A DNA stretch of 63,788 nt, filler included, from Reclinomonas americana ATCC 50394 (GCA_048213135.1; 5 parts of 4 records of this genome joined end to end with filler, not necessarily neighbours in it); one strand, 5' to 3'; shown: positions 1 through 59,895, counted from the whole stretch's first letter. Notes: generated by a model from the sequence alone, not told the origin. Program-made: numbers and translations.

Positions 1-3000
1 GAGAGAGAGAGAGAGTGAAGGATGGAAAGAGAATAGCATGCCTCCCCATTACTCCTTTTCGTCACGCAACTCTCTTTCGCAGCAAAAGACGTCGTGACGA
101 CAAGGTACGTGAGCACGGCGACGGCAATACCAATCTTGCCAATGTCGGTGGCCAGCTTCGTCAGCTTCTTCTGCAACGGCGTGTCTTCCGGTTCGGCCTC
201 GTCAATGAGGAAAATCAGGCGGCCGTATTCGGTCGACGTTCCGACAGCGGCCGCCAAGAATTCACCACTGCCAGTCGACACCTGCACGACCAAGGTGATG
301 ATGAGGGGACGGAAACAGGCGTGGATGATGGGGTCAGCAAAGACTACGCAACAGCTGTGCCAGCCAACATAATGGGGCGACTTGCGCTCTTCTTCACGGG
401 TGCGTTTTCGCCAGTCATCGACGCCTCGTTGATGTTGAGATCTGCAACAATAATAGCACAAGAGTGTTAGTGAACAAACAGAGACGAGACTCTCTCATTC
501 TCAGGCCACACGCTCACCGTTGCCCTCAATAAAGAAGCCGTCGCACGGCACCTCGGAACCCGTGCTGAGGACAACAATGTCGCCTGCCACCACTTGGTAG
601 ATCGAGATTGGCTTGATTTCGCCGTCTCGTTTCACCCTGACGTCGCGATCCTCCTTGACCTTGTTGAGGGCGGCAAACTGTCGGTCCTTGCTCCAGTTCT
701 GAATGGAGCCGACCGACGCCACCACCACGACGGCGGCCATAATGGCCACGCCTTCAATCCAGCCGTTTTCCTCGCTGGAGAGGAAGAGACCGAAGAGGAG
801 GGAGACAATGGCGGCCACAATCTGTGTAAGGGAGAGAAAAGGACGTGGGTGAGGGTGGGAGAAAGAGAGAGAGGGGGGAGAGGGAGAGGAGGAGGGGGAG
901 GGAGGGGGAGGGAGAGGAGGGAGGGAGGGGGAGGGAGAGAGAGGAGGAGGGAGGGGAGAGAGAGGAGGAGGAGGAGGAGGAGAGGAGGGAGGAGGAGGGG
1001 AGGGGGAGGGAGGAGGAGGGAAGGGGGAGGGGAGGAGGGAGGGAGGGGGGNNNNNNNNNNNNNNNNNNNNNNNNNNNNNNNNNNNNNNNNNNNNNNNNNN
1101 NNNNNNNNNNNNNNNNNNNNNNNNNNNNNNNNNNNNNNNNNNNNNNNNNNNNNNNNNNNNNNNNNNNNNNNNNNNNNNNNNNNNNNNNNNNNNNNNNNNN
1201 NNNNNNNNNNNNNNNNNNNNNNNNNNNNNNNNNNNNNNNNNNNNNNNNNNNNNNNNNNNNNNNNNNNNNNNNNNNNNNNNNNNNNNNNNNNNNNNNNNNN
1301 NNNNNNNNNNNNNNNNNNNNNNNNNNNNNNNNNNNNNNNNNNNNNNNNNNNNNNNNNNNNNNNNNNNNNNNNNNNNNNNNNNNNNNNNNNNNNNNNNNNN
1401 NNNNNNNNNNNNNNNNNNNNNNNNNNNNNNNNNNNNNNNNNNNNNNNNNNNNNNNNNNNNNNNNNGAGGAAGAGGCATAGTAAAGAGAGATGAAGAGTGA
1501 GACACAACCAGTGTGCATCCCGTGTTTCTCCCTTTGTCTCACCAGAATAATAATGATTTCATCATTCAGCGCGTCCAGCAAGTGCGCAAAGTACGATTTC
1601 AGCTTCTTTGGTGGCAAGCGGTTCTCACCAAACCTGTGCGTGTGCGTGTAACATGAGACAAAGAGGCAACGCGTGGGAGGTAAAAGCAAGGAGCACGTAA
1701 AAACGCAACACTGCTTTGCGCTCCGCAATGCCGACAGCATCAGTCGAAGCAAGACCCGTACGCAGGTTCACATGCAGCACATTGGCAAGGCCTTCGGCGC
1801 CACCCATTTGCTGAATGCGTTGTGTGCTGTGTGTGGGTGAAGCAAAAGGTTAGTGAGGGACAGGGGGGGAGGGAGAGGGCAGGGAGAGGGCAGGGAGAGG
1901 GCAGGGAGAGGGGAGAGGGGGGAGGGAGGTGAGAAAGGGTTGAGAACATTGACGGCTTGAGGCGAAGTTATTGTATTCTCAGCGAAAACACGAGCAGGAA
2001 AGGAGATGCGAGGAAACACATCTTCAAAAATGGAGAGGAATGCGTCCTTCGTCAGGTTCGCAAGAGTGAAGGAGAATTGGTCAGAGAGCCCACAGAGCAG
2101 GAGAGGAGGATGAGCTTGCGGAGAAAGAGTGAAGAGGGGCAGGGTCAAAGGAACAGGGCGCATGATGCACAGGGAAAATGCAGTTGTCAAGATCAACAGC
2201 CAAGAAGGCGAAATGAACGAAAGAAGGATAACGGGTCAGAGAGCCCACAGAGCACGAGAGGAGGATGAGCTCGCGGAGGAAGAGTGAAGGGGGGAGGGAA
2301 CGCATGATAGGGAACAAACGAATGAATGCCAAACACCATTCGAGAGGAGAAGAGAGCGCGGTCACGAGTCAAGAAGGCGAAATGATCACGAGTGAAGGAG
2401 AATGGGTCAGAGAGCCCGTAGAGCAGGATAGGAGATGAGGGTGGAAGGAGTGCGGCACGAACGAGAGAGGAGAAGGCCCACAAAGATGTAACTCGGTGCA
2501 CAATCTCCCAAAATCCCCCCTTCGCAAATCACGAAGAAGCAGCAGCAGAGGAGAAGGAGCACATGGCGAAAGAATGCCGACGTTCACGAGGAGTGAAATC
2601 ATGTCCTCGTCCTCCCCGCCAAAAGCGACAAACTAATCCCGAAACAACACACGCGGCACGCATAATCGCACGCGCACCGCGATCGAGATAGGAGCGGAGG
2701 GGGGGAGAGAGAGAGAGGCACACAAGAGAGAGAGGACGCGACATTTCCGACACACAAAAAAACTAAACTGAACGCCCGCTCAGCAGCAGCACCACAAACC
2801 CCGCGGCAAGTGAGAGAAAGAAAGAAGAGCGAGAGAGGGCGAGAGAGCGAGGAGAGAAATGATTCTGTGTGCGACCTCAAATTCGACAATGGCCGCCAAT
2901 TTCCCAGAACGGCAAGTAGGCACACCGCGACGCGCTGGCGATCGCCCCCTCTCTCTCCAGCAACACGGAGACACACAACAGTACACGCACAGACTGAGCA

Positions 3001-9073: not shown

Positions 9074-11173
9074 ATGAGACGGTGGACAGTGTACTTTGCG
9101 CTTCTTGCGCTTCTGCTGCTGACGGCGTCGGCGCTGATGGCTGCGGTGCGCGCCAGCGACGATGAGGACACGGAGGAGGATGCCGATGACTCACCATCAC
9201 CAAAGGTGGAGGAGGAGGAGGAGGAGGAGGCGCCGGCCGCCCCGGCCGCCGCCGGAAAGAAGAAGGCGATTGACGACACGGAGTTGGATGTTGCGTCACC
9301 ACACACTTTTCTTGCACTTTTGCGTCATCAACTTTGTTTTTTTTTAATGTTTGTTTGTTTGTTGCTGCGTAGGTGATTGAGTCGGTCAAGGCGACTGGTG
9401 AGTGCGCGCGCGTGTGTGTGATGACGTGTGACGTGTTTTGTTTTTTGTGTGCGTGCGTGCACATTTCGTGCTTTGGTTTTTTGTTTTGGTTTTTTTGTTT
9501 CTCCTCTCCTCCCCTGCGCACTCTCTTTCCGCACCACTGCGCGCGCTCGTCTGCGTTTCTCCGTGTGTGTCGGAGGGGTGTGCATGTCACGCGTGTGTTT
9601 TTTTTTGCTTGCCATGTTGGGGCGACAACTGACTCTTTGTTGCCTCTCTCGTGTTTGCGTGGTGCAGGCGAGACGCACGGCTTCAACACCGATGTCAGCG
9701 TTGCGTAACCACACTTGTCGTCGGAAATAGCCGAGTTGTCTTGCGCGGGAAATTGCTGACGTGGCACTTGTGCACACACAGCGCATGCTCAACATTATCA
9801 TCAACTCGCTGTACACCAACAAGGAGATTTTCCTCCGTGAGCTCATCTCCAACGGTGAGAAGCAGCCCCTCTTTCGTTCTTTTCTCTTTTGTTTTTGCTC
9901 ATCTCTTTATATCACAGCGAGTGACGCTCTCGACAAGGCCCGCTACCTGGTGCTGACCGAGAAGGAGAAGATTGTCGACCCGAACCTCGAGTACGAGATT
10001 CGCGTGAGTCACTCCTCCCTCACTCCTTCCCTCCCCTCCCATTTGCCACTTGTGTATTCACTTCTGTGCAGATCCAACCCGATCCGGAGCACAAGATGCT
10101 GCACATCACCGATACTGGTGTCGGCATGACCAAGGACGAGCTCATTGCCAACCTCGGTACCATTGCGCAGTCTGGCACTCGCAGTTGCGTCTCTCTCTCT
10201 CGCTCGCTCCCCTCCACAAAGTTTCCCTTTCCCTCATTACTACATCCCGACAGACTTCCTCGACAAGATGAAGGACGGTGTCGACAACAACCTCATTGGC
10301 CAGTTCGGTGTCGGTTTCTACTCATCGTTCCTGGTCGCCGATCAGGTCACCGTGGCCTCGGTGTCGGCCTACGGCAAGGAGCAGAACATCTGGCAGTCGC
10401 AGGCCGACGGCAAGTTCTCGATTGCTAACGACAAGCGTGGCAACACCCTGAAGCGAGGGTACGTAATTTTGTGTGTCATTGCCGCTCTTCGTAACGTGTG
10501 CGCGCTCACTCTTTCTTTTTTTGTATCCACAGCACCCGCATCTCGCTGCAGCTGAAGGACGACTGCGAGGAGTACCTGCAGGAGGACAAGCTCCGCGATC
10601 TCATTCGCCGCTACTCGGAGTTCATCAACTTCCCGATCTACCTGTACACCTCGAAGGAGGTCGAGAAGGAGGTGGAGCTGGAGGAGCCGGAGAAGGTGTG
10701 TGTCTCGGGTGACAGAATCAATGATTTCAGTGCGCTTACAAAAAAGAAAATACCATGCAGCCGCCGAAGCCAGAGAAGTCCGAGGACGAGAAGCCGGAGG
10801 AGGCCGCAGAAGATGACGAAGATGAGGAGGAGGAGGAGGAGGCTGAGGACAAGAAGAAGAGTTTCGTCTTGTGTCATTCACCTCACTGTTGAGATGCGTG
10901 GCTGACATAATCGTCGCGGAAACACAGAGACCAAGACCATCACCGAGACTGTCTACGAGTGGGAGCTTGTGAACGAGAACAAGCCCATCTGGACCCGCAA
11001 CCCGAAGGACGTCGATGAGGCGTTGCGTCTAACTTGCGCCTCTCTCTCTCTCTCTGATCACAACGAACAGCCCTTCTCACTCTGCGCACAACCACAGCGA
11101 GTACAACAAGTTCTTCAAGAACCTGACTCAGGAGACTGAGGCCCCGTCTGCCTTCATCCACTTCAAGGCTGAG
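9074..11173 (+). CDS. HSP90B1: Endoplasmin / GRP94 (ER Hsp90), N-terminal half, spliced
   Basis: Signal peptide [124 protein letters not shown]. Confidence 0.97.
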
Positions 11174-12169: not shown

Positions 12170-12920
12170 TTACAGCTCGTCCTTGACGTTGCTGTCATCA
12201 TCGTCATCGTCGTCGGCAGCCGAGGCAGCGCCGGCGTCATCGTCGTCGTCACCGTCCTCAGCAGCCTCCTCGGCCTTGACCTCCTCCTTGGTCTCGCCGG
12301 CCGCCGCCTCCTCCTCCTCCTTCTTCTCCTCCTTTGGCGCTGGCTTGAAGCCGGCCATCAGCTCCTCGTTGTTGGCCTCCTCAGCACCCACTGCACATTG
12401 TGAAGGAGGAAAATGTGAGCGCACATGATGACGAGTTAACAGACGCGGCAAAAGAAAAAATGAAAACTCACCCAGGCGGCGGAGCACATCGAGCACCGTG
12501 CTGGCGTACTTGGGCGCGTCGCTCAGCTCGAAGCCGGTCTGGATCGACGCGGTCTCGAACAGCAGCTCAGCCAGTCTGGCCAGCTCCTCATCGTCGGCGT
12601 CGGCCTCGTAGCGGGCCTTCAGCGACTTGATCACAGGGTGCACCGGGTTGACCTCCAGCACCTTGCCACCATGGTACAGGCTGTGAACGCACGTCAGCAA
12701 CATTTCGATGCGGCAGTCTCTTCCTCTTCTGCATGCGTTCAGTACGAAACTCGTAGTCCTTGTCGCGGGCCAGAGCCTGAGCCTTCAAGATGCGCATCAT
12801 GTTGGCCGACACACCGTACTGGCCAGAGAGCAGCAGCGCTGGCTGCGACGAGCGGCGGTGCGACACGTGGACGCGGTCGACCTTGGAGCCGAGCAGCTCC
12901 TTGTACCACTTGATAAAGTC
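12170..12920 (-). CDS. HSP90B1: Endoplasmin / GRP94 C-terminal part ending in KDEL, on the opposite strand
   Basis: GQYGVSANMMRILKAQAL; KVLEVNPVHPVIKSL; LLFETASIQTGF; acidic tail ..NVKDEL*. Confidence 0.93.
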
Positions 12921-16900: not shown

Positions 16901-19860
16901 GCAGTCGTGGAATGCACTGCTGGTCGTCGGCTGTCGCGTCGAGTACCTCACCAACCACTTGGGCCAGCGATGGCGATCGTATTTCTTCCCCGAGTCGACC
17001 ATGCAGGCGGCCACACAAGTGCACGAGTGCGTGCTGGAGCCCCTGACGCCGGAGCAGATTGATGCTTTCCTCGAAAAGTGCGCATTGCTTCTCCCCACTC
17101 TTCTTTTGTGTCACACGTGTGTGGCTAAAAAAATAAGCGACGCAGCAACTCGACGGCGGAGAGTGATTGGCTGGAGCGGCGCCACATCATTCACAGCGTA
17201 CCCGGACTGCTGGGGCTGGCATCTACGGTTTGCCGCGATTGACATGTGCAGAAGTGCGTGTCGAATTTCTTTGCTGAAAGGGGTTTACCACACAGCCGCT
17301 TCTGTTGTCTGCCATGAATGTCGTTCTTGCCGGTCTATCGGCCGGTGCTGACGATCGCAAGAGACCGTGGACGGCGGCTGCTGTTTTCGAAGTGTTGGTG
17401 GCGTGGAGCTTTGGCGAGGTTGTCGACGAGCCGAATGCGGCATTGGTGTGTCCTACGCGTCTATTTGCAATGTGTTTTTTTTTTTTGCTCACTCTGCGTG
17501 CCAGCCTCGCGCGTTTCTGCGAGATGATGCACTGCACAAGTTCTCAGTGTCCCTCGCCGGCGACATGGTCTCTGCCGACATTCACGTTGTGTGTCCGACG
17601 GTGCGTGTGCTTTCGCTGACAGTGACCGAGTAGCAGTAGCGACTGACTTTGTGAAATGCCATGGTGTTGTTACAGCCCACTTCGACCACTTCCAAACTCA
17701 TTCAGGATTTGCGCAAGGCTCAAGGAGTGGTGCGTGTTGGGATGTTGTGTGCGTGTACTTGGAGTCACGGGTTGTTCACTATTGTCTTCAGCTGGAAGCG
17801 CTGCAATCTCGCCTTCCGCCTCCGGAACATGACTCACCTGGCGAAAAGCCGCACGACGCCGTCGCCCGCAAAATCCGCTCTTTGCAACATGAGGTGGCCG
17901 CCGTCGACACTGCGCGGCAGTTGTGGGATCGACATTTTGGTCCACTCTCCGCACAGCAGCTCTACGCTCTCTGTCGTGCGGTGAGTGGTGAAGGGGCAAA
18001 GAGTGGCAGAAGAGGGGGAAGAGATGGGGGAGGCAAGAGTACTTAAAGGATGAGATTGGGAGGGAGACAGCGAGAAATATTGGAGAGGATGGATCGCAAG
18101 GAGGAATGTCAGCTGTTTTGCGTTGTGCGTGATGGATGCGAGAGATATTTAAACGGAGAGTGAGGAGAAGACAGTCGACAGAAGTGGAATGAGAGAATCC
18201 AGTGGCGTGGTTACGTTTAGTTCTCGACTTGGTTTGTCATTTGCTTAAAAGAGCAAATCCTCTGTTTCCCCTCATTTCATTCCTTTCCCCCACAGTCCTT
18301 CCTCATGGTCTGCAACTCGGCTTCCAGCAACAGTGGAGTCATGTACGTACACCGCGCCATCCGCGACTACTTTGCTGCCCTGCGCTGCAAAACCTATGTG
18401 GAGACGTGGCAACGCCTCGCCACATCACCTGCGGCTGGTTCATCGGTGCGCCGGCCTCAAATCTTCTCTATTTTCACCAGCCTTCTTGCTCACTGCGCTC
18501 ACTCTGCAGCAACATTCGCCATTCTTGGAGCGCATGCTGACTTCGCGCGATCAACTGTCGGTGCTCGGCTTCCTCTCGGAGTTCGTGTGGGATGCCGATG
18601 AGCCGGCGGTCATGTCACTACTCGGCGAGAAACTCGTGCAGTTGTCGCGCATCAGTGCCGATCAGTCGAGCATGCAAGTTGCTGCGATGAACGCGGCCAC
18701 CAGTTGCGTCGCCACATCCAGGTTGTCCACTCGCTTGTTCTTTCCATGGCTCATGGATTCGTCCTCTTCCTCCTTTACCACCAGCCCTGTCGCTTGGCCA
18801 CGCAAGCGCCCTGGTTGGCGATCGACCGGAGAGTCGACGTGCGAGCCTTAGTCCCGCCAGTGTCAACTCACCCGGGCAGAATCTATCGCCACGCATCTTC
18901 CGCATGCACGACCTGGCTGTGCGAGCGGTGGCGCTGGCGGCCGATCACGTGGTCTCCGGTAGTTTTGACGGCACAGTGCGTGTGGCGGTGCGAAAGACCG
19001 GGCGTGAAGTGCACTGTCTGCGCGGCCACACGTGCGAGGTGTTGGGAGTGGTGGTGGTGCATCAGCACAATTGGGTGGTGTCGTGCTCGGTGGACTCGTC
19101 GGTGCGCGTGTGGAGTCTGGTGACGGGTCGCATGGTGCACCAGTTGGAGGGTCACCACAGTGTGGTCACGTGTATCGCTGTGGCGAACTACGGTAATGCG
19201 GTGCTGAGTGGCAGCTGGGACAAGACGCTGCGACTGTGGGACCTCAACTCGGGCACCAAGCGTCTCGTTCTCGAGGGCCATCGCAAGAAAATCAATTGCT
19301 GTGCTGTGGTCGATCACATCGCTGCCAGTGGGTCGGCCGACAAGACGGTGCGTGTGTGGGATTTGGAGCAGGGAGTGGAGGTGAGTGTGAAAAGAGGGCG
19401 AGAGAAAAGAGATAGATGAGCGTGGGCACTGACAGCGGCGGTGCGGCAGATTCGGAGGCTGATGCACGGCGGCAGTGGCAATGGTGTGGAGGGTGTGGCC
19501 ATTTCTCACGATCGGCGGATACTGGTCAGTGCGACCACCGGCTGCGTGCTGCGCGTGTGGCAGCTGGAGAGTGGCGACTCGCTGTTCCGTCTGGAGGGGC
19601 ACACGGACGCCGTGTGGGGTGTGGCATTCCTGCCGCGCTCGCTGCGCTTTGTCAGTGCCTCCCTCGACGGGTCGCTGCGCTTCTGGGACAGCGAGCGGGG
19701 CGAGCTGCTGGAGGAATGGGACGGTGCGCATGCCGGTGGCGCGTATTGCTGCGATGTGTCGGTGGATGGGAGATTTGTGGCGTCGGGTGGAGCGGATGCG
19801 TTGGTGCGGGTGGCGCCGGTGCCGGATTTTAGTTTGTTGGTGCGGACGGGGGTCTCATGA
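13938..19860 (+). CDS. NACHT/STAND NTPase - WD40 repeat protein (NLR-like), spliced
   Basis: First visible exon 13938-14045 (MRLRGGGCGTSK..) splices in frame to 15331. Walker A VLVIAGACGSGKT; Walker B FVLVLDSFD; sensor LLVVGCRVEYL; LEPLTPEQIDAFL; GLAST|PLLL; winged-helix YVHRAIRDYFAA; about 7 WD40 repeats at 18904-19830 (GH..SGSWDKTLRLWD etc.). Confidence 0.88.
14130..15095. repeat. Foldback-like element: ~36-bp minisatellite array (14130-14670) and the same array inverted (14770-15095), inside intron 14046-15330
   Basis: GAAGGCACAGCGAGAGTTCAAGGAGTGGATGG units on the left; TCCATCCACTCCTTGAxCTCTCGCTGTGCCTTCCC on the right. A variant unit GAGTTCAAGAACGGATAGAGAGAAGGTACAAC is present in both arms. 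Confidence 0.85.
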
Positions 19861-23830: not shown

Positions 23831-23893
23831 CTAAACAAAAAAACAAACAAGGACAACAACAAATAAGAAAATGCTCACTTATGTAAGCAAATG

Positions 23894-23938
<45 letters not shown>

Positions 23939-24059: not shown

Positions 24060-24103
24060 NNNNNNNNNNNNNNNNNNNNNNNNNNNNNNNNNNNNNNNNN
24101 NNN

Positions 24104-38357: not shown

Positions 38358-38457
38358 NNNNNNNNNNNNNNNNNNNNNNNNNNNNNNNNNNNNNNNNNNN
38401 NTTAATTAATTAANNNNNNNNNNNNNNNNNNNNNNNNNNNNNNNNNNNNNNNNNNNN

Positions 38458-39227: not shown

Positions 39228-42132
39228 TCAAGGCGACGTGGAAAAGATCGGCCGAATGTCGACCGGAATGCCGAGCGTGGTGGCCTTGTCGAGCACCGCC
39301 TGCATCTCAGGCCGCACAGAGCCGCGTGAGTCCAACAGGGAACGCGCCAGCGCGACATTGCCTTGCGCTTGCATCGTCAACAGCGTGGTCGTCAGGTCGG
39401 CGACGCAGCCCTCAATCTGTGCACCAAACCCCTTGAGTTTCATCACTCACGCACGATTCCCTTGCAATGGTACGTACCTTGCTAAAGTCGACATAGTACA
39501 TCTGCACACATATCGACGAATCAGTGTCATTTTCAAAGAGAGAGAGAGAGAGAGGCAGCGCCACGCAACCGATGCCGATGAGTCGTACACAAAACCGCCG
39601 CACTCGACAAACGAGTTGAATGACAGCGCCACGGCTCGTGCATGCGCCTCGTTGGTGCCGAAGCGCACCGACCGGAAGGCGCTCGCCAAAAAGGTGACGT
39701 ACAGCGACTTGACCTGGTCGGCGGTGAGGGTGATAAAGTTGTTGTCGTTGAGCAGCACGAGCATCCACAGGGCGGACACATCTGCAGCAGCAGCAGAGGT
39801 GAGGGATTTTGATCTCACAGTCGACAGCAGACTGGAGCACTCACCAGCCTTGGCCTCCTCAATCGGCGAGTACAACGCTTGGAACACCAAGCGGACTGTC
39901 GTGTGCATGCCATTAATCTGCACGCCACCTCAATCGTGAGCTGTGGAAGCGACACATGCGAAAAAATTGGAGTCACGCACCGTGATGTTGTGTGGTCCCA
40001 GTCCGTGCATGAGCTCGTGAGCCAGAATGTGCGTGAAAAAGGCATCGAAAGACACCATGGAGCGCTGATCATCACGCACACCGAGTCTGTGGACGCAGTC
40101 AGTGAGACACAGCAGCCGTGAGACATCATCGCGCGGTTGATCACAAGCGCAACTCGGCGAGTCGCAGCAGAATGCGATCGTATTTGCCGCGCTGCACGTT
40201 CTTCAGCAGTGTGCGCTTGCTGCCCTCTGCATCCAACACACACAAGCGTGATGATGAGCAACGCAGTCTTCATATCAATCAGCAGCGAATTAGCCGCACC
40301 TTGCTCCACGACACGCGGATCATTCGGCAGGTTGAAGGCGGCACTCTGCACACGCCAGAGGTGAGTATCTCTTTCTCTCTTCCCACTCTTCTCACACACA
40401 AGAGCCAACACACCTGCACACCAGGCGCTGCCTCTCTGCATGTAAAGAAGAGCAGGATGAGTCACAAGAATGCGAGAAAGCCCTACTGCACGTCTACGCA
40501 CCCTCCATTGTACACCTCGTTCACGGCGACGAGCACGGCGGCCTTGCCGAGTTGCGGGTTGCGGTAGGCGGGGTTGATGGGCAGATTATCCTCCACAAAC
40601 TGCAGGTGCTGCGTGAATGTCTGCAGTTGCTGCGTCGACTCGGGATCCTGCGCGAGCACAGTCGTCAGTGACATCACACTCAGCCGACACGCCGCCGCGT
40701 ACACACGCACCTTGATGGTCACGTATGCCTCGAAGGCGGCCTTCAGACCCAACAAGTTGTCCTCGTAGGTCTCATACGGTCCAATCGTGACCTCGATCGG
40801 CGAATCCAGCTGCATCCACAACACCTGCGCTCGGCGAAAAGCAATCATCATCAGCATCTGGTTGCCACTTCTCTCTTTCCCACATGCAGCAACAACACGA
40901 AACGTCGCTGGCAAAGTAGTCCTGCGCAGGGTCGAGGAAGGCGGCGGCGCGAGACTGCAGGAAGCTGTGGTACGAAGTGAGTGTAAGAGGGGAGAAGGAA
41001 AAAAAGAGACTTGCTTCACACGAACTTTTTCAGCGACTGGTTCGTCGTCGCCTGCGCAGCGGCCTGCATTTCAGTGGCCGCGGCTTGCAGTTGCGTGGCG
41101 TACGCCGTCGAGTACGGCACCGACATGAGCTCTGGGTGCACGCACACACGTGAGCAGCGACGCATCCGGCAAGGAAAGACATTTCCTCAGCCTCGCAACT
41201 TCCTTGCGCATCTCGACGAATGACAGTGAAGAAGCTCTCGGCCTGATCGCGATCCGCCGGCGACAAGCTCGCCGTCCACGTCTCGAACCTGCACGGTCAT
41301 CCACAATCAGCTTTACGCGCGCGATGCCAGCACCACCAGAGCGAGAGAGAGATGCGCATACTCACTCCTGCTTGCTCATGTCGAGCGGATAAAAGCCGGC
41401 GCCTGGCGGCTTCTCCCCGACGCCCGCGACAAACGCATGCTCATCGTCAAGCCGCGACCACGGACCAGCATTCAGCTCAAACGCGCCCAACTGCTGCACC
41501 GGGCACTCGGTAGTGTTCTGCGCCGCCGCCATTTGCAGCGCCGTCTGCGTCGCCTCATTGTTGACCCACACCTGCTCGAGATAGATTGGATTCATCTGCT
41601 GCGCAGCGCGCACCAAATGCTGCAACGCCGTGCGCTCACTCTGCGGCAACGCCGTCGTGTCGGCCGTCATCGCCACCGTGACAAACGCCCTCAGATCCGA
41701 GTCTGCATTGCGCGCCACATAACAAGTGAATCATCCCAGCTGCAGTCAGTCGATTGCCTCGTCACGCAACTTGCAATGGTGCACTCGGTAGATGGTCCCA
41801 CTGGCGTCGAGTTATCACCGCTCTTCTTGCGCGGTAACACCAGCAGCACAATCACCGCCGTGACCAGCACACCAATCACCACGGCACTGATAATCACAAA
41901 GCGACGATTGCCGCGCGAGATCCACGTGCCTCCGGAACCATCGCTCTCACCAGTGGTCGGCGTGCGACTCGGCGACGATGCCTCCGAGCCCGTGTCGGAG
42001 AACGAGGCACCGAGAAAGCGTTTGGTGTCGCCCACCACCTGCACACTGTGTGTGTAAGCAAGCAGGCAGGCGAGAGTGGCAAAGGGCACGCACCTTCTTG
42101 CCAATCACGTTGGCCGCGAACGAGCTTGCCAT
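39228..42132 (-). CDS. Peptidase M49 / DPP III-like (plant NUDT3-type catalytic domain) with N-terminal TM anchor
   Basis: NAGPWSRLD; KPPGAGFYPLDMSK; VTIGPYETYEDNLLGLKAAFEAY; SAAFNLPND; FFTHILAHELMHGLGPH (40005-40019); SPIEEAKA; FRSVRFG..EAH; IPVDIRPIF. Confidence 0.92.
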
Positions 42133-42227
42133 CCTGCAAGAGAGTGCGAATGCTATTTGTCACCTCGCAGCGCGAGCTGTCAACTCCTCTATCACTCTCT
42201 TTCTCTCACGCGCACCGACGCACACAC

Positions 42228-44229
42228 ATGGTGGACATTGACGTGAGCTGGGTCATCACCACCAGCGTGGTGGCCATTGCACTGTACGCGCTGCTCTCAT
42301 GGCTGTGGCGCTTCATCAGTGACCCATTTGGCACCTCCTCCTCTTCATCCTCCTCCATATTCTCGTGGTCATCCGCCAAGGATGACGAGGACGTCTACTC
42401 CGCAGCAGTCGACTCCTCATTATCTGCATCTTCATTGTCGTCTTCATCCGGTGGTGCATTGTCTTCGTCTGTGCGAGGCAGCAACTGGTCATTAGTGCCG
42501 TCGTTGGACGCGGTTGGTGGTGGCGGAGGTGGTTCGTTGGCACTGGCAGGTGCCTTTGGGCAAGGCCCCTCGTCGGTCGCCTCGGCTTCGGCGGCTGGAG
42601 GCGGCGCAGCTGCTGCGGCGGCCTCCTATGCGCGTCTGCCTTCCTCTTCCTCCTCTTCTGCTGTCAGTGGATCACCGCTGGTGGAGCGTCGAGTGTGGGG
42701 CGTGGAGGTTAGCCTTGTTCTTCTGCTTCGTTGCTGGTGCGATTCGGCGCTCATTTCGCTTTGGAGTCACAGCCGCGCAAGGAGAGCGGCGAATTGCCGC
42801 TTGGTGTGTTTGCGCTGCAGGAGTTGGAGGCGAGTGAGGATGCTCGTGGCTTGCTCCGGCGACAGATTCGTGACAAGGGGTATGCGCGATGTGTGTGTGA
42901 GAGAGAGAGAGGTTCCGCAGCAAGGTGTCCTCACAGCTCCGTCTGTGATGCAGGTGTGCTCGGCTGCGTGTCGCCAACTGCGGAGGCGCGTATGAGGCGT
43001 CGTTGAATGCGGTGATGGAGTTCATGTCGTTGTGCACCGAGGGCGAGAAGCGGGAGCTGGCCATGCGAGTGTCGGTGGAGGGCGCTGAGTTGCCGTGTGG
43101 CCACGCGGCTGATGGGACGCTGGAGTGGTTGATTGTTGCGTCGGTGTTGTCTGTGCCCCTTTTTGCTGTCTGCGGCTCATGCGTGGGTGCGCGCAGACGC
43201 GACGGGAGCACGACGGCAACGTGTGTCCGCAGTGGCACACGGAGGCCCGACAACGTGTTGATGAGACGCTGGCCGCCGACGCTCTGGAGGCCTCCACCGC
43301 CATGTACACCATGATGGACTCGCTGGCGCGGTTTGTCATGCGGTGCCTCGTGCTGCCGGTGAGTGGGAGGAGAGGAGGGAGAGGGAGAGGGAAAACCAGT
43401 GTCTCACCTGGTCTGACAGGAGGAGATTGAGCCATTTTTGGAGCCCGCGCGACCGGTTGAGCCGGAGGAGGCCACGGCCTCGTTCCAGCGGGTGGTGTTG
43501 CGTACTTTACTTGTCTGACGATTGTTTGTCTTCTGTGTTGCTCACCCCACGGATGCAGGTGGTCGAATCTAATCAACCACTCGAAGCGTGTCGGATTGAC
43601 CGGTGAGCGACACGCCCAGCTTTCCTGTCGCCTGCATACAGTTGTTGTCTTATGTCGTGGGAACACAGAGACAACCGGTGCGGAATTCGGCATTCCTGGC
43701 CTCTGTTCGGTGGCATTCATCGGTTCCGGAGCCTGCCTCGAGTCGCGCGGCGGCCTGTCCACGGTTTGCACACAAGCTTCTTGCGCGCTGTGCTGACGAA
43801 CGATAGAAAGCTAATCGCGGCTATATCGCAGCGCGTCCAAGTCGACCACCACGAGCCCGTAGAGCTGTGCGTGTTTGTCGGCCGCCAGTTGGAAAACATG
43901 ACGGATCGTCGCTATCGCAGCGCCATCGTGCGCGAGGTCTGTGTGTGTGTGTGTGTGCGTGCGCGCTGTCTCCGCACACGGTGGAGAGTGCTGACCCTTG
44001 TGGATTGATGCAGGTCTTCTCGACCGATCCACATGCGGCGCGCGCCATCACCTGGTACAACTTGTGGATGAGTCCCGAGTTCGATCTGCAGACGCAGGAA
44101 CGGGAGCGCGTCTTTACCTTTACATCGCCCGCGCACGGTTCGTCCCAACTGCGTTTTATTTGTTTGTGTGTTTTCTTGGCCTCACGACGAGCCGATGCAG
44201 CGTCGAGTGGTTCTCTGCGCGACCGACGG
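42228..44229 (+). CDS. Degenerate IPNS-like 2OG-Fe(II) oxygenase-fold protein with N-terminal TM; 3' end in gap
   Basis: TM VSWVITTSVVAIALYALLSWLW; LRRQIRDKG; GEKRELA; SFQRVVW..GAEFGIPGLCSVAFIG..CLE; LCVFVGRQLENMTDRRYRSA follow the DIOX_N/2OG-FeII_Oxy motif order. Confidence 0.55.
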
Positions 44230-44514
44230 NNNNNNNNNNNNNNNNNNNNNNNNNNNNNNNNNNNNNNNNNNNNNNNNNNNNNNNNNNNNNNNNNNNNNNN
44301 NNNNNNNNNNNNNNNNNNNNNNNNNNNNNNNNNNNNNNNNNNNNNNNNNNNNNNNNNNNNNNNNNNNNNNNNNNNNNNNNNNNNNNNNNNNNNNNNNNNN
44401 NNNNNNNNNNNNNNNNNNNNNNNNNNNNNNNNNNNNNNNNNNNNNNNNNNNNNNNNNNNNNNTGTCTCCCGTGAGAGAGACAGGCGATTCGTTGATTTGA
44501 TTGCATATGCGCAG

Positions 44515-47651: not shown

Positions 47652-48641
47652 ATGACTGGCACGGAGAACGCACCGTCTCGTCGTGTGGTGGCGCGTGTGA
47701 TTGGCGTCTGCGGTGGCATGGGTGCGCCTTCTCTCTCCTCTCCTTCTCTCCATCGCTGTGACTCATGCATGCCTGTGTGTGTGTGTGACAAGGCGCGGGC
47801 AAGGAGGAGGTTCTGAACTTTTTCCGCGCGCGTGGCTACATGGCATTCTCGCTCAGCAACGTGCTGCGTGCTCGCATTGCCGCTCGTCTTGGCCCCGATG
47901 CAGTCACTCGGTGCGCATTTTGCATTTTGCATGCACGACTTGCATGTCATTGACTGACCAGACTCCTCTCCCAGTGACAACCTGCGCAAGGAGGGCAACG
48001 AGCTGCGCACACAGTACGGACCTGGTGCGCTCGGCGTCAAGGCCGTCGACTACATCCAGGCCGAGGAGCAGCAGGTGAGCAGCACTGGGTCTCCCTGCCC
48101 ACATGTTCCGCGTTCCAGTCGCTCACTCGGTGACTGGGTGAGCAGAAGCACCCCGCCGGCTTCATCATTGACTCGATCCGCCACCCCGACGAAGTCCGCG
48201 CTCTCCGTGCCGCCATTCCCCAGTTCCGCTTGATTGCTCTCGATGCACCCATGGCTGTTGCGTTGGCGCGTCACTCTCTCTTATCTTTTCCACACGGCTC
48301 TGTTGTTATTGTCGGGTGTGACCCGCATGACAGCAGTGGTAGCAAGCGGAAGAGGCCGTACAGTCAACGCAGGCACAGAAACACAGCTGACTGTTCGCTC
48401 ACTCTCCCTTTACCAGCTGCGTTTCCAGCGCTGTGAGAAGCGTGCCCGCGAGGCCGATCCCACCGCAACACTGCTTACGTTCTTGGAGGCTGACGATCGC
48501 GAGTCGTATGGAGAGGGCGCCGGACAGCGTGTCCGCGAAACCATGGCCCTGGCCGACGCTTACATTATCAACGCCACGACCCTGCAGGATTTGCATGCCA
48601 AGCTGGAGAACCTCGTCCGTGAGTGGGAGAAGCAGCAGTAG
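47652..48641 (+). CDS. UPF0200-like / dephospho-CoA-kinase-fold P-loop kinase
   Basis: VIGVCGGMG|AGKEEV..FSLSNVLR..TR|DNLRKEGNELRTQYGPGAL..FIIDSIRHPDEVRAL..IALDAP..|LRFQRCEKRAREAD..FLEADDRE..MALADAYIIN..TLQDLHAKL; 5 exons. Confidence 0.8.
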
Positions 48642-48775: not shown

Positions 48776-51700
48776 TCAACTGACAGCGAGGAGCGAGTGC
48801 GTGAGGTGCTTGACCAGCCGCAGGTGGTGCGGCACTTGTGAGTCGTTGCCGAGGAACTGGGCACTAAAGATGCGAGTGTTGCCCAAAATCACCCTGTCAT
48901 GGTGGTGAGTGCGCTGGCAAGAAGCAAAAACAAACATGAGCTGCAGACACTCAACTTATTGTATACGGTGGTCTCGCGAGCGCCGGGGGCCGGCGAAAAG
49001 GTGCCGCCGAATTCGTAGCAGTCGAAGCGACCCAGGTGACGGCCGAACGTGGGTTTCGTGTCCTTCAGGAACGACCAGGTCTCCATCATGGAGTTGGCCG
49101 ACAACTCAAAGTGCTCTTGTGGTGTCATGCCCTCTGGTCTCTCCTCCGAGACCACCTGGAACAGCGACTGTCCAGCCGTGCCACTCACAATGAGGAACGA
49201 CATGAGTGCCAGTGGTATCCGCTGCACCGGCGGGCGCCGTCAGTGAGCGACACACAGCAGCTTGCGGTGAGAAGACGAGGAGGAGAAAACACACACACAC
49301 CTGCGACAATGGTGTCCACCAGCCGGGAATGGAGACAGAGCAGCGCGCCGGTGGTGCAATCTCGTACTCCCACAAGCAGCGTGGCTTGTCGCACACGGCA
49401 GCGTACTCCCACACTGGTCTCATGCGCGACAGGTCGCCGGTTGCCGGGTCGATGAAGCGCACCGACGAGGCGATTTCGTGAATCTCTCCCGCGTCAAAGC
49501 TGCAAAGAGAGGAGGAGTGAGGCAATGAAGTGGCAGGAGAGCAGCCAGCGACACACGACGCAACTCGAGATCATCGGGCGACGCAAAAATGAGCCATATG
49601 ATGCTGCAGACGACAGAACGATGAGATAGAGTGCACTCGTGGGCGTTCTTGACTCCCTTCCTCCACAAACCGTACGCCGCTGGTGAAGAACCAAAACTGG
49701 TAGCGCACGCCATCCTGCAAACACAAACCCTGGTTAGCATCCTCTTCCTCCACTCTCCCCCCTCACCACACCAACCTCGTGTACTTCAGCCACCGGGATG
49801 TGCTGGTCGTTGCAATCGACCAGCAGCATCCGCACCTCGCTGTCGTCCTCCACAAATCCAGCCACCCGTTGCTGTGCGCAGCGATGAGCAACTACCCCGA
49901 CTGTTCTTGCCTCGCCCCACCCAACCCAGCCCAACCCACCTCCACCGAGGCAATGTCTGACGAGATGGGCGCCTCGTCCTCGTCGCATAACAATTTGATT
50001 TCTGTACCATCCCGCTCCCACGCCAACCATGATTCGCCATCCGAACTCAGCTTCCAGTCCTCCGACATGGACACGCGGAGACCGTGCGAGTACGACACCA
50101 CCGATATTGTGTCTTCGAAGATGTCGTCCAGGGGTTCCGCGATTTCCGGCTCCGGGATGACTTCTACTTGCGGCTGTGGTGGCTGCGGGGGCGACGGTGG
50201 TGCCTCCACTGCTTGTGCTTGCACTACTGTTGGTGGCGGTGGTGGCGGGCGTTGGAACGCCATCGAGGGTATACGCTGCAACGTCGGCTGTGGCGACACG
50301 GGCGACGATTGCTCCGGGTCCGCCGCCGGCTGCGGTGACGGGTTGGACGACGGCATTTGCAGCGGCGTGACGGCAGTTGGCAGACTCGACTCTTCCTCTG
50401 TGGGAGCATGGTCAGCGTTTCCTTGACGGGAGAGAGAGGTGGCAAAGGCAGCAAAAAGGGCACGTACCGGTGGTGGTGGCCGAGCTGGCTTCTGAATCGT
50501 CGCCAATCAATGTGCACCGTCGGAGCATCATGTCGACAGCCTCCTTGCACTTGTCAAATGCTGAGTCGGCGGCCGTCAATGCACAGCTGTAAAACGTGGT
50601 GCCCACTTGAATGCACACCACCCTGTGCGTGGAGGAGGGTATGATAGGTGAGCACGGGTGACTAAAGTGGGAAGCAGCTCACACAGAACAAACCAGAATC
50701 GTGTTTTTTGTTGAGCCGACTGCCGCACGCACACACAGAGAGACAGAGTGAGCGAACGGAACACACGTGAACATCACATGTTAGAAGCGCGCAACATGAG
50801 AGGCGAAAAACTGCAGGCCATCGTGCCCGAGGAAGGCTTCGTCGGGTGTGGAGAAGGGCATCACCACGTTGCCGAGCATGACCACCGGCACGCGCGTAAT
50901 CTCTGTACAAAAAGTGTGAGTCATGCTGAATATCCTCCCTTGCCAGCTCAAAGAGTACGCACCCTCCAGTGCGCCATTGAGCGAGTCAAAGAAGCCCCAC
51001 AGATAGTCGTCCACCGTACAGGCGCCATTAACGTCGGTTTGCACGTGTTCTCGCATCAGCGCAATCGTACCGAGCCTGCACAGTCGACGGTGAGCATGTC
51101 CGGACACGACACCAAAAATCCAAAAACCCCAGCAACACGAAACTCCAATCCCACACCCGACTTGATGATCAACCGCGTGATCTGCGTCTCATTCACCGGT
51201 TCCAGCTCGGCCCAGCCCTCCGGGAATACCAGCTGCAGCGCATCACGTTCAGCAAGAAACCGAACAGCGAGCGAAAAAATGACATGTCTTCACCGTCAGA
51301 GTGGCCTCCGGATCCGCAAACACCCGCTGCACAGGACTACGATGCGCCAACGTGAGCGGATCCTGAGGCGACACAATCGGCGCCGCACTGTGCTCATGCG
51401 AGTGTTGCTGCTGTTGCTGCTGATGCATCTGCTGCTGCAGCGCCGGTGAATAGTCGAACCGTCCGGATCGTGGCGACATGATCTGCACCCCGTCTGTGCG
51501 TGAGAGAGGGAGAGGGAGGGACGCACGGAGGAAACACGCAAGGAACCTGTCGCGACGGATGATCCAGCGGCAACTCATTGTGCTGAATGACCTGTGCGCA
51601 TGTACGTGAATCGGAGGCCCTCTCACCGATTGACACACACACACACATAGGAGATGCGCATGCACACCTCCATCATCTGACACAGCGCCGCAATCCACTT

Positions 51701-52663: not shown

Positions 52664-54220
52664 CACACTACTACTNNNNNNNNNNNNNNNNNNNNNNNNN
52701 NNNNNNNNNNNNNNNNNNNNNNNNNNNNNNNNNNNNNNNNNNNNNNNNNNNNNNNNNNNNNNNNNNNNNNNNNNNNNNNNNNNNNNNNNNNNNNNNNNNN
52801 NNNNNNNNNNNNNNNNNNNNNNNNNNNNNNNNNNNNNNNNNNNNNNNNNNNNNNNNNNNNNNNNNNNNNNNNNNNNNNNNNNNNNNNNNNNNNNNNNNNN
52901 NNNNNNNNNNNNNNNNNNNNNNNNNNNNNNNNNNNNNNNNNNNNNNNNNNNNNNNNNNNNNNNNNNNNNNNNNNNNNNNNNNNNNNNNNNNNNNNNNNNN
53001 NNNNNNNNNNNNNNNNNNNNNNNNNNNNNNNNNNNNNNNNNNNNNNNNNNNNNNNNNNNNNNNNNNNNNNNNNNNNNNNNNNNNNNNNNNNNNNNNNNNN
53101 NNNNNNNNNNNNNNNNNNNNNNNNNNNNNNNNNNNNNNNNCCCTACTTCCGCACAGGTGCCCCTGACGCACAACAGATTGGCGCTCGGCTCATTGACCGA
53201 CTCATGGACGCGATTCAATTGGAGAACGACGATGAGGCCAGATGTGACAGCGTGCGATTGCTGTTTACTTGCCTGGACGGTCTGTGCTTCTTTCTTCTTC
53301 TTCTTCTTTTCTCTGCAATCCCAGTTGACCATGTGGTGACTGACTCGGCGTGTTCTTGTTGCAGCGCATGTTGATTTCAAGCAAGTGATTAGTGAGCACC
53401 CCGATCACCTCGTGTTCCTCATCACACTCCTGGATTATACCACGGAGCGCCTGCTGGAGAACACTTGCTTGGCCATCGAGGCGTGTGTCTTTGGCCCCGG
53501 AGGTCAGTTTGCTACTCACTTCTGCTTGCCTCAGGCACGCGCTGACACTTTGCTCCCTGGCACAGTATCGTCGGGACCAGTTACAGTGAATCGAAACACG
53601 CTTGGCGATGCTGGCTGCGTTGAGAAGCTGCTGGGACTACTCGTGCCGTCACCCTATCACACGCCAACTGTGCGTGAACGTGCGAGTGCCACTCTGTGCC
53701 ACTTGGTGGCACGACATCGCGCCAACCAGGATCGCCTGCGCGACGCTGGCGGATTCGAGTTGCTCGTGCAAGGTCTTCGCTGCTCACACGCGCAAGTGAT
53801 CCGCAACTGTGCCGCCGCTCTCTCCACTGCCGTGTATGGTGCGTAGTCATCACTCTGTTGTCAGGAACGGAAGTGACATGATCTCATCGCCACCCTCACT
53901 TGCGCAGACAATGCGGAGAACAAGGAGGCTCTGATCTCCTCTGGAGCTGCACGGTTACTTCGTCAGCTGCTGAATCACGTTGCGTGCGATGATACGAGAG
54001 GCTTGTTGTTGCCATGCCGCTGATGAGATCTGCTCGCACCACACGACAGTCTGTGGAAGTGGTGGCCAGCAACTCTCGCATTGCACTGAATAATGCCGGT
54101 CTGCCACTCGTTGAGCCTGGCGACGGAGCCGGTGGTCCGCGAGCAGAAGGAGACAATGATTTCGATGGTGGCATTGGTGGTGGTGGCAATGTCGATGAGG
54201 ATGCACATGATTTGGACTGA
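52367..54220 (+). CDS. Armadillo-repeat protein
   Basis: NRNTLGDAGCVEKLLGLL; ERASATLCHL..NQDRLRDAGGFELLVQGL; RNCAAALS. Confidence 0.8.
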
Positions 54221-57435: not shown

Positions 57436-59895
57436 ATGGCTGTGCTGCTGCAGGCCGTGCAAGAGGTGCTGGTCAACCCGGCAGTGTCGCTGTCGGCACG
57501 CGATGCTGCACTGAGCGAGATGCGCAGTCTGGTGGCCTCACTCACGCAGGTGAGTGTGTGAGTGCGCGCGCGCGATGAACAAATTTGCGCTCACTGAAAG
57601 AGTGACATGCACCGCAGGCCGATGTGCGCAGCATGCAGCCAGCGTGTGTGCAGACTCTGCTGCTGTTGACCGACTCCAAAGGTGTGTGCGTGTGTGCACG
57701 TGGATGTGTGTGTGTGTGTGTGTCTCACTGATCGCCTCATCGTCATCATCACACAGAGGCTGCATGGCCGCTGCGACATCGCATTGGCCTCTCGCTGAGT
57801 GCACTCTTCCGCGCCAGCGGCGATGTGAACAAGGTGGCCGAGGTGTCGCGGGAGTTGCTGACTCGTGCGTCGGCGAGCAAGAGCACAGTCAGCTCACGCA
57901 TGTTGCGTTTGTTTGCCGGGGATGTCTGTCTGTGAGTGAGTGTGTGTGTATGGCAGTTGGAGTGAACCTCTCGGCTGCAGCTGTGCGTTGACGTGCTTGT
58001 CGTCGCTATGGGGAGACTTTGGTCGCGTGCTGAGTCGCGAGGTCGGCGACCACTTTCGCGAGCTGTCCAAGCTCGTCAAGTCGGAAGAGGTTCTTTTGGG
58101 TCGTGCCGTTTCGCTCCTCCCCGCAGAGTTATCTCATCGACAGGAGTGCAATGCAGGGCAATCTGAGATACTCGGCTCTGGTGTGCTTGGCGGCGTTGCT
58201 GGCCGGCAGCACACGAGTCATCGATGAGTTGTTCCCGGACCTGTGCAAGGCGATCCAGCGTGGCTTGTCGGTGCGTGGGAGGGGAGCAAGTGTGCACCTC
58301 TCTCTCTCATGCCTTACGCGGGTGCTCTTTGCAGGACTCGATGGTGCAGGTGCGCGAGGCAGCCGTCGAGTGCCTGGTTGGATTGGCGCGCACTTCGCGA
58401 TTGGCGGTGTCGACTGCGGTGGAGACGCTGATCACCATGGCGCTAAAGGTGGGGGCGAAGGAGCGAGTCTTGTTTCTGCACTTGCGTGTGTGTGTGACTG
58501 ACTTGTTGTGGGGGGGTTAGACGCTGGAGGACGCAAACTTGCATGTTCGCGAACGCATGTGCGAGACCCTCGGTGTGCTGCTGGCCCGAGCGGTGCAGTT
58601 CAATGCTACCGACAAGCCCGAGACTCCAGTCAAGGCGGGCGCGGCGGTCAAGACCTCCTTCTTCTCCTCCAAGAAGCGCACCTCGTTCTCCATCGTGGAT
58701 GTGCTGGAGGTGCTCGGCACCCAATTCAAGCGCTGTTGCGTCTCACTTGACGTACGTGCAGTTTGCATGCGGCGTCTTCTCATGCACAACGTTTCGGTTC
58801 ACAGCCTCGTCGTGCGTGGCACGAACGAGTATCTCGCGGTCTCTCGTTCACATGTGCCGTTTCATTCCGTCACTCGATGCCTTGTTTGTGCAACCCGACT
58901 TTACCGTGCGTGTGCTGGAGAGTGTTCTCGACTACTTGTCTTGCATCAAGGCCTCCACATCGCCACTGGATCTGCGCAACATTCGTAACTGTGTTAGTGT
59001 CATGCTGCTCGATGGATTCCGGTGCCGATCGGGTTAGAGCATGCTGGCGACGAAAACTGAAGCGCCTTGTTCGTTGTTCTCATCCGCGACCGCTGTCACA
59101 GACGCTTTGGATGCACCGTTTATCGAGTGTGTGCTGACGCTACTCGCTGGCTGTCCCGCCCGCACAGACGAGTGGCGGACAGCATGCCTGCTGGACCTTT
59201 TGCGGTGAGACTGTGCGCTTCTTCTTTCTCTGCCGCGCAAGCACCCCACCTGACGTGCATCTGCCGTACCAGACAACGCATCCTGAGTGGCAGCTCTGGA
59301 GTTCTCTCACTGCTCGACAAATGCGTCGACTGCCTCATGCAGCAGACGCACGCTCCCACGCTGACTGCGGCGGTATGTGAGCTGCTGCTCCATGGACGAA
59401 CAGTCCCGATCTCACTCCGTCTGCCCGCGCGCAGTGCTTCCATGCGATTTGCACCGTGTCCACTTCCTTTGGCAACACGCTACTGGCAAACTTGCTGAGC
59501 AACGTGCAAGTCACGATGCAGTCGTTACAGGCGCTGAATAAGAAGTCGGCACGTGCGGTGAGTGCGATGAATGCCACCACGGTCATGCAACGCACTTGTG
59601 GGTGACACGTGGTGTGAGCACAGGCCCCGCCACTGTGCCGACAGCTGGAGAACGTGTCCTTGTACGCCTCGGCCTGCATGAGCGCACTCGCGTCGTCGTT
59701 CACCACCTGCGTATTCAGCAGTGTGTGGTCCTCCATCGACACAGCGTTCAAGATCTTCTCGTCGCCCAGCAACGAGGTCCAGAGTGGTTTGTTCCCGCAT
59801 TTTTCACCGCTGTCTCGCTCTCTTTCCTCGCCCCTCAATCAGCGATTGCACGCGACAGCACAAGAGTCTCTGGACAGCGCTTGCTGGCGTCTGCT
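57436..59895 (+). CDS. HEATR5: HEATR5 / Laa1 / SWEETIE-like HEAT-repeat protein, N-terminal part (truncated at linker)
   Basis: PLRHRIGLSLSALFRASGD; CALTCLSSLWGDFGRVL; DLCKAIQRGLS|DSMVQVREAAVECL; LK|TLEDANLHVRERMCETLGVLLA follow the HEATR5 N-terminal motif order. Confidence 0.8.

Follow-up and report, generated by a model that had tools for sequence, protein, structure and literature searches.

A putative second class of 5′ splice site, GTT[G/T]CG(T), beside ordinary donors in the same genes of a Reclinomonas americana sequence window

Can the introns of a single gene begin according to two different rules? A guanine at intron position +5, and its pairing to U1 and subsequently to U6 small nuclear RNA (snRNA), is among the most conserved rules of splice sites. 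The window analysed here (63,788 nucleotides (nt) of DNA from Reclinomonas americana ATCC 50394, GCA_048213135.1) raises this question, as a first-pass annotation had listed within it 25 sites at which introns appeared to start with GTTGCG(T), the G being shifted from +5 to +6. The hexamer is present at all 25 coordinates, on the strands given. The window is eukaryotic, GC-rich (40-62% in 4-kb windows) and very rich in introns, with approximately 10 or more per gene at its GRP94/endoplasmin and M49 peptidase loci. Comparison with homologues indicated that individual genes use GT-AG donors of two discrete kinds rather than one fuzzy consensus: an ordinary kind, G|GT[G/A][A/C/T]G(T), and a second kind, H|GTT[G/T]CG(T), which is mostly GTTGCGT. 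The latter begins roughly 30% of the securely placed introns, or 40% when GTTTCG is included. Judged from sequence homology, the core observation is thus right and statistically solid.

Junctions were pinned by aligning intron-free homologues to the DNA and scoring every frame-keeping GT...AG pair between neighbouring exon matches; GC donors were also allowed in some of the scoring runs. The pinned set consists of 24 introns from four genes (GRP94, M49, the P-type Ca-ATPase PMCA, and uL13) of one 64-kb window of joined contigs. The nearest GRP94 sequence, P0001 (844 residues), is 81% identical on the query exon and takes up almost the whole of its 2,595-nt contig, from which it follows that it lacks introns and is most probably an assembled transcript. 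GRP94 matches that carry names (Toxoplasma, Besnoitia) are about 61% identical. Identity between P0001 and the exons beside the three GTTGCG junctions of GRP94 is 78-95%. The M49 junctions were voted on by 12 bacterial or metagenome homologues, with the additional use of a MAFFT alignment, and the uL13 junctions were fixed on PDB chain 4v91_O.

The three GTTGCG introns of GRP94 on the plus strand, located at 9700..9781 (GTTGCGTA, 82 nt), 10184..10253 (GTTGCGTC, 70 nt) and 11022..11097 (GTTGCGTC, 76 nt), join their exons without gaps relative to P0001, at DVS|RML (score 147 vs 136 for the next option), SGTR|NFLDK (264 vs 248) and DVDE|AEYNK (262 vs 251), respectively. The intron at 10861..10927 (+; GTTTCGTC, 67 nt) was also the best choice with P0001, by the narrow margin of 197 vs 196, and in the inverted C-terminal part of the gene an intron at 12681..12750 (−; GTTTCGTA, 70 nt) scored 233 against the same protein, with a margin of 27 and a length difference of 0. 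The remaining pinned introns of GRP94 are one of the ordinary class at 10004..10071 (+; GTGAGTCA, 224 vs 174 with P0001) and those whose donors at 9855 (GTGAGAAG), 10459 (GTACGTAA) and 10696 (GTGTGTGT), all on the plus strand, gave the best junction with P0001.

All M49 introns lie on the minus strand. The one at 41132..41199 (GTTGCGAG, 68 nt) was selected by 8 of the 12 homologues (no difference in length, margin 22.4 on average) and that at 40087..40153 (GTTGCGCT, 67 nt) by 7 of 12 (length difference 0, mean margin 6.6). For 39502..39569 (GTTGCGTG, 68 nt) the donor was selected by 10 of 12 and the acceptor was taken from the MAFFT alignment; a micro-exon of about 24-25 nt (39478-39501) follows directly. 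The intron at 40825..40903 (GTTTCGTG, 79 nt) is gapless with both P0122 (59 vs 47) and P0121 (54 vs 42). Another, at 40965..41025 (GTTCGTGT, 61 nt), has T at +3 with ordinary spacing, and was preferred by P0122 with 89 vs 79 (the ab initio choice was 41019). The ordinary class is represented by 39918..39980 (GTGCGTGA), chosen by 12 of 12 homologues. Further donors are located at 41365 (GTGAGTAT, 9 votes), 40299 (GTGCGGCT, 1 vote, margin 21), 39844 (GTGAGTGC, 3 votes) and 39477 (GTACGTAC, MAFFT alignment). The intron at 40648..40710 (GTGCGTGT, 63 nt, 9 votes) is in frame and stop-free; it was missed by the gene finder and revealed by the homologues.

Within PMCA, the intron at 282..352 (−; GTTGCGTA, 71 nt) is the top junction with P0230 (108) and P0292 (109), and a donor at 517 (−; GTGAGCGT) was likewise pinned by homologues. 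The uL13 gene (60541-61681, −) has two junctions that are tied to solved structures: the introns at 61148..61232 (GTTTCCTGC, 85 nt) and 60907..60997 (GTTTGTCGT, 91 nt), both preceded by G at −1, separate exons which abut at residues 53|54 and 103|104 of 4v91_O. Both donors fall outside the two main classes, so that the proposed shift of G from +5 to +6 describes the GTT[G/T]CG class and not every donor.

The hexamers found at the 24 pinned donors are GTTGCG (7 introns: +9700, +10184, +11022, −352, −41199, −40153 and −39569, all of them listed sites), GTTTCG (3), and GTTCGT, GTTTCC and GTTTGT (1 each); the others begin with GTGAG (5), GTGCG (3), GTACG (2) or GTGTG (1). This bears out the earlier proposal of an abundant second donor class, with GTTTCG as a related form, used alongside GTGAG, GTGCG and GTACG. 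Removal of each of the ten GTT[G/T]CG introns restores the frame and the collinearity with P0001 or with the M49 and PMCA homologues. The frequency comparison which the first-pass annotation had suggested also came out in favour of the class, since the seven GTTGCG donors compare with 0.80 expected from independent base frequencies at +3 to +6. T occupies +3 in 13 of the 24 introns, and it is accompanied by C at +5 in 11 of these 13, as against none of the 11 introns with another base at +3 (Fisher p = 3e-5). The placement of class members in conserved proteins was confirmed for GRP94, M49 and PMCA; for NPL4 it is based on ab initio models.

The hexamer itself is present in 64 copies on both strands, compared with 57.46 ± 7.00 in 100 shuffles, 20 of which reach 64. 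A plain excess of the hexamer was thus ruled out as an explanation, the count being within the shuffle range, and because GTTGCG is not over-represented the class stands or falls on its use as a donor. The window contains 25 copies of the heptamer GTTGCGT; 21 of them coincide with listed sites and two more (+18703 and +53979) are predicted donors. The other two, at +41090 (antisense to the M49 gene) and at −21324 (in purine-rich, non-coding-looking sequence), are not among the predicted donors.

Simple open-frame heuristics proved too noisy in this GC-rich sequence, and a dynamic-programming gene finder was used instead, in a donor-agnostic run (GT alone required) and in a second run with a self-trained donor table, which is partly circular. 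GTTGCG headed the list of donor hexamers in the donor-agnostic run, starting 9 of the 109 introns predicted. When introns were filtered for a length of 55-95 nt, a CAG acceptor and a CTVAY motif, it accounted for 6 of 44, as against 21 of 1055 among all GT sites of the window that passed the same filter. The corresponding counts with the self-trained table were 17 of 117 and, after the filter, 13 of 50.

The two kinds of intron are, as far as their sequences go, alike in everything except the donor, and those of the GTT[G/T]CG kind look like ordinary short U2-type introns. Their median lengths are 70 nt (GTT[G/T]CG) and 71 nt (ordinary; Mann-Whitney p = 0.78), all 24 pinned introns measure 61-91 nt, and 23 of them end in CAG. 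When ab initio introns are included, 21 of 23 GTT[G/T]CG introns and 29 of 38 ordinary ones carry the branch-like motif CTVAY some 18-19 nt before their 3′ end; in the former it takes the forms CTCAC, CTCAT and CTGAC, and its median distance from that end is 18 nt. Introns of the two classes are interspersed in the same genes.

What distinguishes the GTT[G/T]CG class is confined to the donor and the base before it. Besides C+5 and G+6, which define the class, T is present at +7 in 20 of 23 introns, and no conservation extends further; in the ordinary class G+5 (38 of 38) holds by definition and T+6 is found in 22 of 38. GTT[G/T]CGT can be described as GT[G/T]CGT with an extra T, i.e. the information is displaced by exactly one base; GTGCGT is among the commonest ordinary donors and GTTCGT was pinned once. 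The last exon base also differs. G at −1 precedes only 1 of the 10 pinned GTT[G/T]CG introns vs 11 of the 14 others (p = 0.0028), and, with ab initio introns added, 1 of 23 vs 27 of 38 (p = 1.6e-7). It is present once among the 25 listed sites (binomial p = 0.003 relative to base composition). The −1 base of the class is mostly A (10/23) or T (8/23), and the T-rich donors outside the class, GTTTCC and GTTTGT, do carry G at −1.

In order to consider how such a donor could be read, pairing with the 5′ end of U1 was calculated with a nearest-neighbour duplex model (duplexfold), which takes no account of pseudouridine, proteins or U6. With the canonical U1 end (AUACUUACCUG), GUUGCGU is predicted to form only a 3-bp helix (−1.3 kcal/mol); the shifted helix is prevented by C+5, which would lie opposite a U, while the human-type GUUGAGU (−5.7) and GUUAAGU (−5.6) both pair in it. 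With a U1 carrying ACGUAC (AUACGUACCUG), the shifted register of GUUGCGU reaches −7.2, as compared with −10.9 for GUGCGU and for GUACGU and −6.2 for GUGAGU. The model therefore argues for a non-canonical U1 rather than for a plain bulge on the standard one.

Taking these results together, we tentatively favour, with slightly less than even confidence, a reading in which GTT[G/T]CG(T) is a second donor class, equivalent to GUGCGU with an extra U, that is recognised by a non-canonical U1 of the ACGUAC type. GUUGCGU would then be the GUGCGU consensus lengthened by one base. In the shifted register +1G would lie opposite C9, +3U opposite A7, +6G opposite C4 and +7U opposite A3, and the −1 base would face U10, which would favour A. 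The U1 pairing region would not be the canonical ACUUAC; it would have a G opposite C+5 and probably read ACGUAC. Such a U1 is predicted because C+5 is invariant and canonical U1 pairs very weakly with GUUGCGU. U6 and the catalytic steps, which come later, would have to tolerate an additional nucleotide separating the GU that is cleaved from the GU that is paired. An ACGUAC U1 would jointly explain the liking for C+4 in the ordinary class, and the invariant C+5 and tighter constraint of the longer one. A broader version, which we consider somewhat unlikely, is that the major spliceosome follows two donor grammars of different length, G|GURNGU and H|GUU(G/U)CGU, with diverged or duplicated U1s and a U6 and active site that accept the extra nucleotide, the second grammar having a −1 rule of its own and serving at least a third of the introns.

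Several observations weigh against the ACGUAC reading. Such a U1 scores G at −1 (−7.1 kcal/mol) as well as A (−7.2), so the energies leave the avoidance of G unexplained, and T, present there in 8 of 23 introns, pairs with nothing. A simple shift of the ordinary class would also be expected to produce many GTTGAGT and GTTACGT donors; GTTGAG was found only twice in the donor-trained run and GTTACG not at all, though GTGAGT and GTACGT are common. The avoidance of G at −1 and the scarcity of these two donors are explained by no version of the mechanism. Moreover, GTTTCCTGC, GTTTGTCGT and GTTCGTGT, all of them T-rich and pinned, belong to neither class, the sample consists of 24 pinned introns in four genes of one 64-kb window, and the ab initio runs err, as shown by a donor-trained intron at 44637 that is refuted by the adrenodoxin-reductase alignment.

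A different division of labour among snRNAs may be considered. A dedicated second U1 (perhaps with a matching U6) bearing ACGCAAC, exactly complementary to GUUGCGU, could coexist with a U1 that reads GTRNGT. This would suit the discreteness of the class, which has no intermediates in the pinned set as judged from the association of T+3 with C+5 (11/13 vs 0/11), the near-invariance of C+5, G+6 and T+7, and a −1 preference that has nothing in common with the ordinary one, which would follow if C is not the next base of the snRNA. The modelled duplex of the perfect complement with GUUGCGU amounts to −10 kcal/mol, and U1 candidates of Physarum include both standard and modified variants, according to a preprint (bioRxiv 10.1101/2022.06.08.495308). 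GTTTCGT, however, which begins 3 of the 24 pinned introns, would be mismatched and pair at only −3.4 kcal/mol, and each gene examined that has several introns contains both classes next to one another; we hold a second U1 to be quite unlikely. It is also unlikely, in our estimation, that U1 and U6 are canonical and that these donors are used with almost no U1 pairing, through intron definition (branch site and CAG), through U6, U5 and Prp8 at the GU, or through a protein that binds UUGCGU. The modelled canonical pairing of only −1.3 kcal/mol, the tight lengths (61-91 nt), the strong 3′ signals and pinned donors such as GTTTCCTGC, which also lack G at +5 or +6, are what this explanation would lead one to expect, and a pyrimidine at +4 occurs with an unchanged U1 in Thecamonas, Micromonas and yeasts, as described in the same preprint (bioRxiv 10.1101/2022.06.08.495308). 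It is opposed by the 7-base motif itself, whose near-invariant positions +5 to +7 imply specific reading of a stretch normally read by U1 and U6, and no candidate protein was identified.

A further explanation, that the junctions are misplaced because the true donor lies three bases further on, at a GC-AG site (GTT|GCGT), or because the genes are unspliced pseudogenes, gains some appeal from the fact that the GC alternative is always in frame. It adds one residue, however, and scores lower (136 vs 147, 248 vs 264, 251 vs 262, 103 vs 108 and 98 vs 109); the three GTTGCG junctions that are gapless against P0001 (844 residues) beat it by 11-16 score units, and reading through the introns breaks the frames. 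The GC donor was rejected on the junction scores of GRP94 and PMCA, and misplacement as a whole is very improbable. The first-pass annotation had further suggested that the class was spread by an intron-generating element. Introner elements are known from Micromonas, Aureococcus, dinoflagellates and fungi, and they resemble the present case in having a common sequence at the intron ends and in being linked to intron gain within a lineage. In agreement with this, the motif is located at the extreme 5′ end of the introns, and intron gain has occurred in the lineage, as the intron-laden M49 gene has bacterial and metagenome relatives (35-50% identity). The introns differ from introners, however, in lacking any common internal sequence beyond the first seven bases and any length families; in length and at the 3′ end they do not differ from other introns. 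When 129 introns were compared with one another by blastn, 44 pairs resulted, and every one was a (CT)n or (GT)n microsatellite match or an overlap between alternative models of a single intron. An introner-like origin is thus extremely improbable, and the suggestion was not upheld. U12-type introns, which have the donor RTATCCTT and the branch sequence TCCTTAAC, offer a parallel insofar as a second, highly conserved donor motif marks a minority of introns. They were rejected as an explanation, given that the donors here are GTTGCGT or GTTTCGT, unlike the minor-spliceosome consensus, and the branch-like motif CTSAY (CTCAC, CTCAT or CTGAC) is as in other introns.

How does the GTT[G/T]CG class relate to atypical donors described elsewhere? 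Shifted and +2/+3-bulge registers between 5′ splice sites and U1 were reportedly established in human cells by Roca and Krainer in 2009 and by Roca et al. in 2012. The class resembles these sites in that an additional U comes after the GU, the G-U that pairs with U1 is displaced by one base into the intron (+6/+7 instead of +5/+6), and cleavage occurs at the true GU. It differs in that the human type has A where the present class has an invariant C, and in that GUUGCGU is predicted to form no shifted helix on canonical U1, so that the likeness covers the sequence pattern and not the pairing with canonical U1. The human registers are also rare: Tan et al. 2016 (PMC4856993) give 68 predicted +2/+3-bulge sites, and validated non-canonical registers amount to 1.5% of 201,541 sites. 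Here GTT[G/T]CG donors begin 7-10 of the 24 pinned introns.

Lineage-specific donors with a matching change of U1 are also on record. According to the preprint mentioned above (bioRxiv 10.1101/2022.06.08.495308), Entamoeba has a U1 with ACAAAC and GUUUGU(U) donors, and Mastigamoeba balamuthi a U1 with ACGUAC and GUGCGC donors. As presented there, they are precedents for an altered U1 pairing region, and share with the window a lineage-wide atypical donor, U+3, a consensus extending to +7 and a liking for C+4 such as that of the ordinary class. Each of the two is described there with one consensus, whereas two classes of different length are found here in the same genes; in addition, the Entamoeba donor has G at +5 rather than at +6, and Entamoeba is intron-poor, as opposed to about 10 or more introns per gene in the window. 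Both phenomena, U1 registers other than the canonical one and donors peculiar to a lineage whose U1 has changed to match, are therefore known already. What appears to be new is a donor class one base longer, used by at least a third of the introns beside an ordinary class in the same genes and with an exon-side rule of its own, of which we found no description. Searches of the full-text literature with splicing terms gave no account of GTTGCG or GUUGCG as a donor and retrieved only primer sequences or other mentions unrelated to it, subscription journals and supplementary files being outside their scope. DNA of relatives was sought in metagenome contigs with two exon queries, which gave 0 and 44 loci, respectively; those tested are 35-59% identical to P0001 per aligned segment, and are uninformative on whether relatives share the class because they are too distant from P0001.

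Besides the seven pinned sites, the 25 listed ones comprise nine with ab initio support, one ambiguous site and eight with neither kind of support; the donor-agnostic model misses 16 of the 25. Both runs predicted the introns 9290..9372 (+; GTTGCGTC, 83 nt; N-terminal region of GRP94, which is not conserved), 48257..48416 (+; GTTGCGTT, 160 nt), 58735..58804 (+; GTTGCGTC, 70 nt) and 21920..21995 (−; GTTGCGTG, 76 nt), the latter in NPL4, whose MPN domain constitutes the upstream exon. The donor-trained run alone gave 22259..22377 (−; GTTGCGTG, 119 nt; NPL4), 57902..57980 (+; GTTGCGTT, 79 nt) and 49500..49564 (−; GTTGCGTC, 65 nt). Its raw model of the gene at 42228-44229 contained 43135..43196 (+; GTTGCGTC, 62 nt) and 43497..43558 (+; GTTGCGTA, 62 nt), and was dropped from the final gene set by the overlap rule. 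The NPL4 junctions rest on ab initio models because the homologue search gave no match at E ≤ 0.001 and the PDB search supports the MPN exon only, the exon upstream being without a match. Two unlisted sites were predicted in the donor-trained run, at 18703..18784 (+; GTTGCGTC, 82 nt) in a gene with a WD40 family match and at 53979..54049 (+; GTTGCGTG, 71 nt) in an ARM-repeat gene.

The ambiguous site is −1709, in the N-terminal part of PMCA, where the candidate intron 1633..1709 (−; GTTGCGTT) takes in the first base of the next exon; it is the best GT donor (68), yet not separable from GC alternatives at 70 and 69. Neither homology nor ab initio support was obtained for +4922, +8997, +14046, +46152, −70, −3142, −23770 and −41770. 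At −41770 the ab initio model selects −41818 (GTGATAAC) instead, with the acceptor unchanged. The status of −23770 and +14046 is blurred because of repeats: translations upstream of the NPL4 MPN exon (22400-23900, −) contain several copies of one motif, and a G-rich repeat (14050-15100) follows +14046.

Homologue coverage or resolution was insufficient to pin a number of further introns: in GRP94, +9290, about +9398, one ending near 9666, about +11176 (which runs into an N gap) and −12471/−12432; in M49, −42242, −42093, −41770/−41818 and −40501, for the last of which 5 of the 12 homologues selected the donor GTGCGTAG and the acceptor was not fixed; −1709 in PMCA; +44649 and +44985 in an adrenodoxin-reductase/FprA-like gene; and −61642 and −60655 in uL13. 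In the adrenodoxin-reductase/FprA-like gene (44464-45912, +) the exon runs on through SARAFV past 44637. The donor predicted there by the donor-trained model (GTTTGTGG) is wrong, as the homologue alignment reads through it, and the donor is likely 44649 (GTGATGCT).

Several contigs have been joined to make up the window, and genes are interrupted where they meet. Blocks of the form N44-TTAATTAATTAA-N44, located at 24004-24103, 33637-33736, 38358-38457 and 59896-59995, represent an artificial linker with stops in all six frames (its letters were read at two of the blocks, and the other two were assigned from the identical N pattern); ordinary N gaps are present as well. Besides GRP94, PMCA, NPL4, M49, uL13 and the adrenodoxin-reductase/FprA-like gene, family searches recognised pieces of WD40, kinase, ARM and Enkurin genes. 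The Enkurin domain (63199-63786, +; E = 9e-15), known from a protein of cilia and flagella, suggests a flagellated organism. No Rfam match to snRNA genes, including U11 and U12, and no tRNA match was obtained within this small window.

The N-terminal half of GRP94 lies on the plus strand (9079-11201) and its C-terminal exons (12932-12476) on the minus strand, inverted within 11919-12987 between two N gaps; the inverted part is likeliest a mis-oriented scaffold piece. The M49 gene (39228-42358, −) has solely bacterial and metagenome relatives (35-50% identity), of which those with names are Luteitalea and Acidobacteriota. It contains at least 12 spliceosomal introns of both donor classes and encodes an N-terminal extension with a membrane-spanning look, and is a candidate for transfer from bacteria followed by heavy intron gain.

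The GTT[G/T]CG class may offer a naturally occurring means of testing how an intron's start is read by the splicing machinery. To our knowledge, registers shifted by one base have been described solely in human genes, where they are rare exceptions validated one by one. An organism in which at least a third of the introns use such donors would show how much slack there is in the steps carried out by U1, U6 and Prp8, whether a split consensus is matched by changes in the snRNAs, and why the last exon base switches from G to a base other than G. Gene finders that use a single donor matrix will mis-annotate a large share of the introns in this genome. If two parallel grammars are indeed in use, a shifted or bulged register, elsewhere a rare exception, would here for the first time be a principal mode of splicing in an organism.

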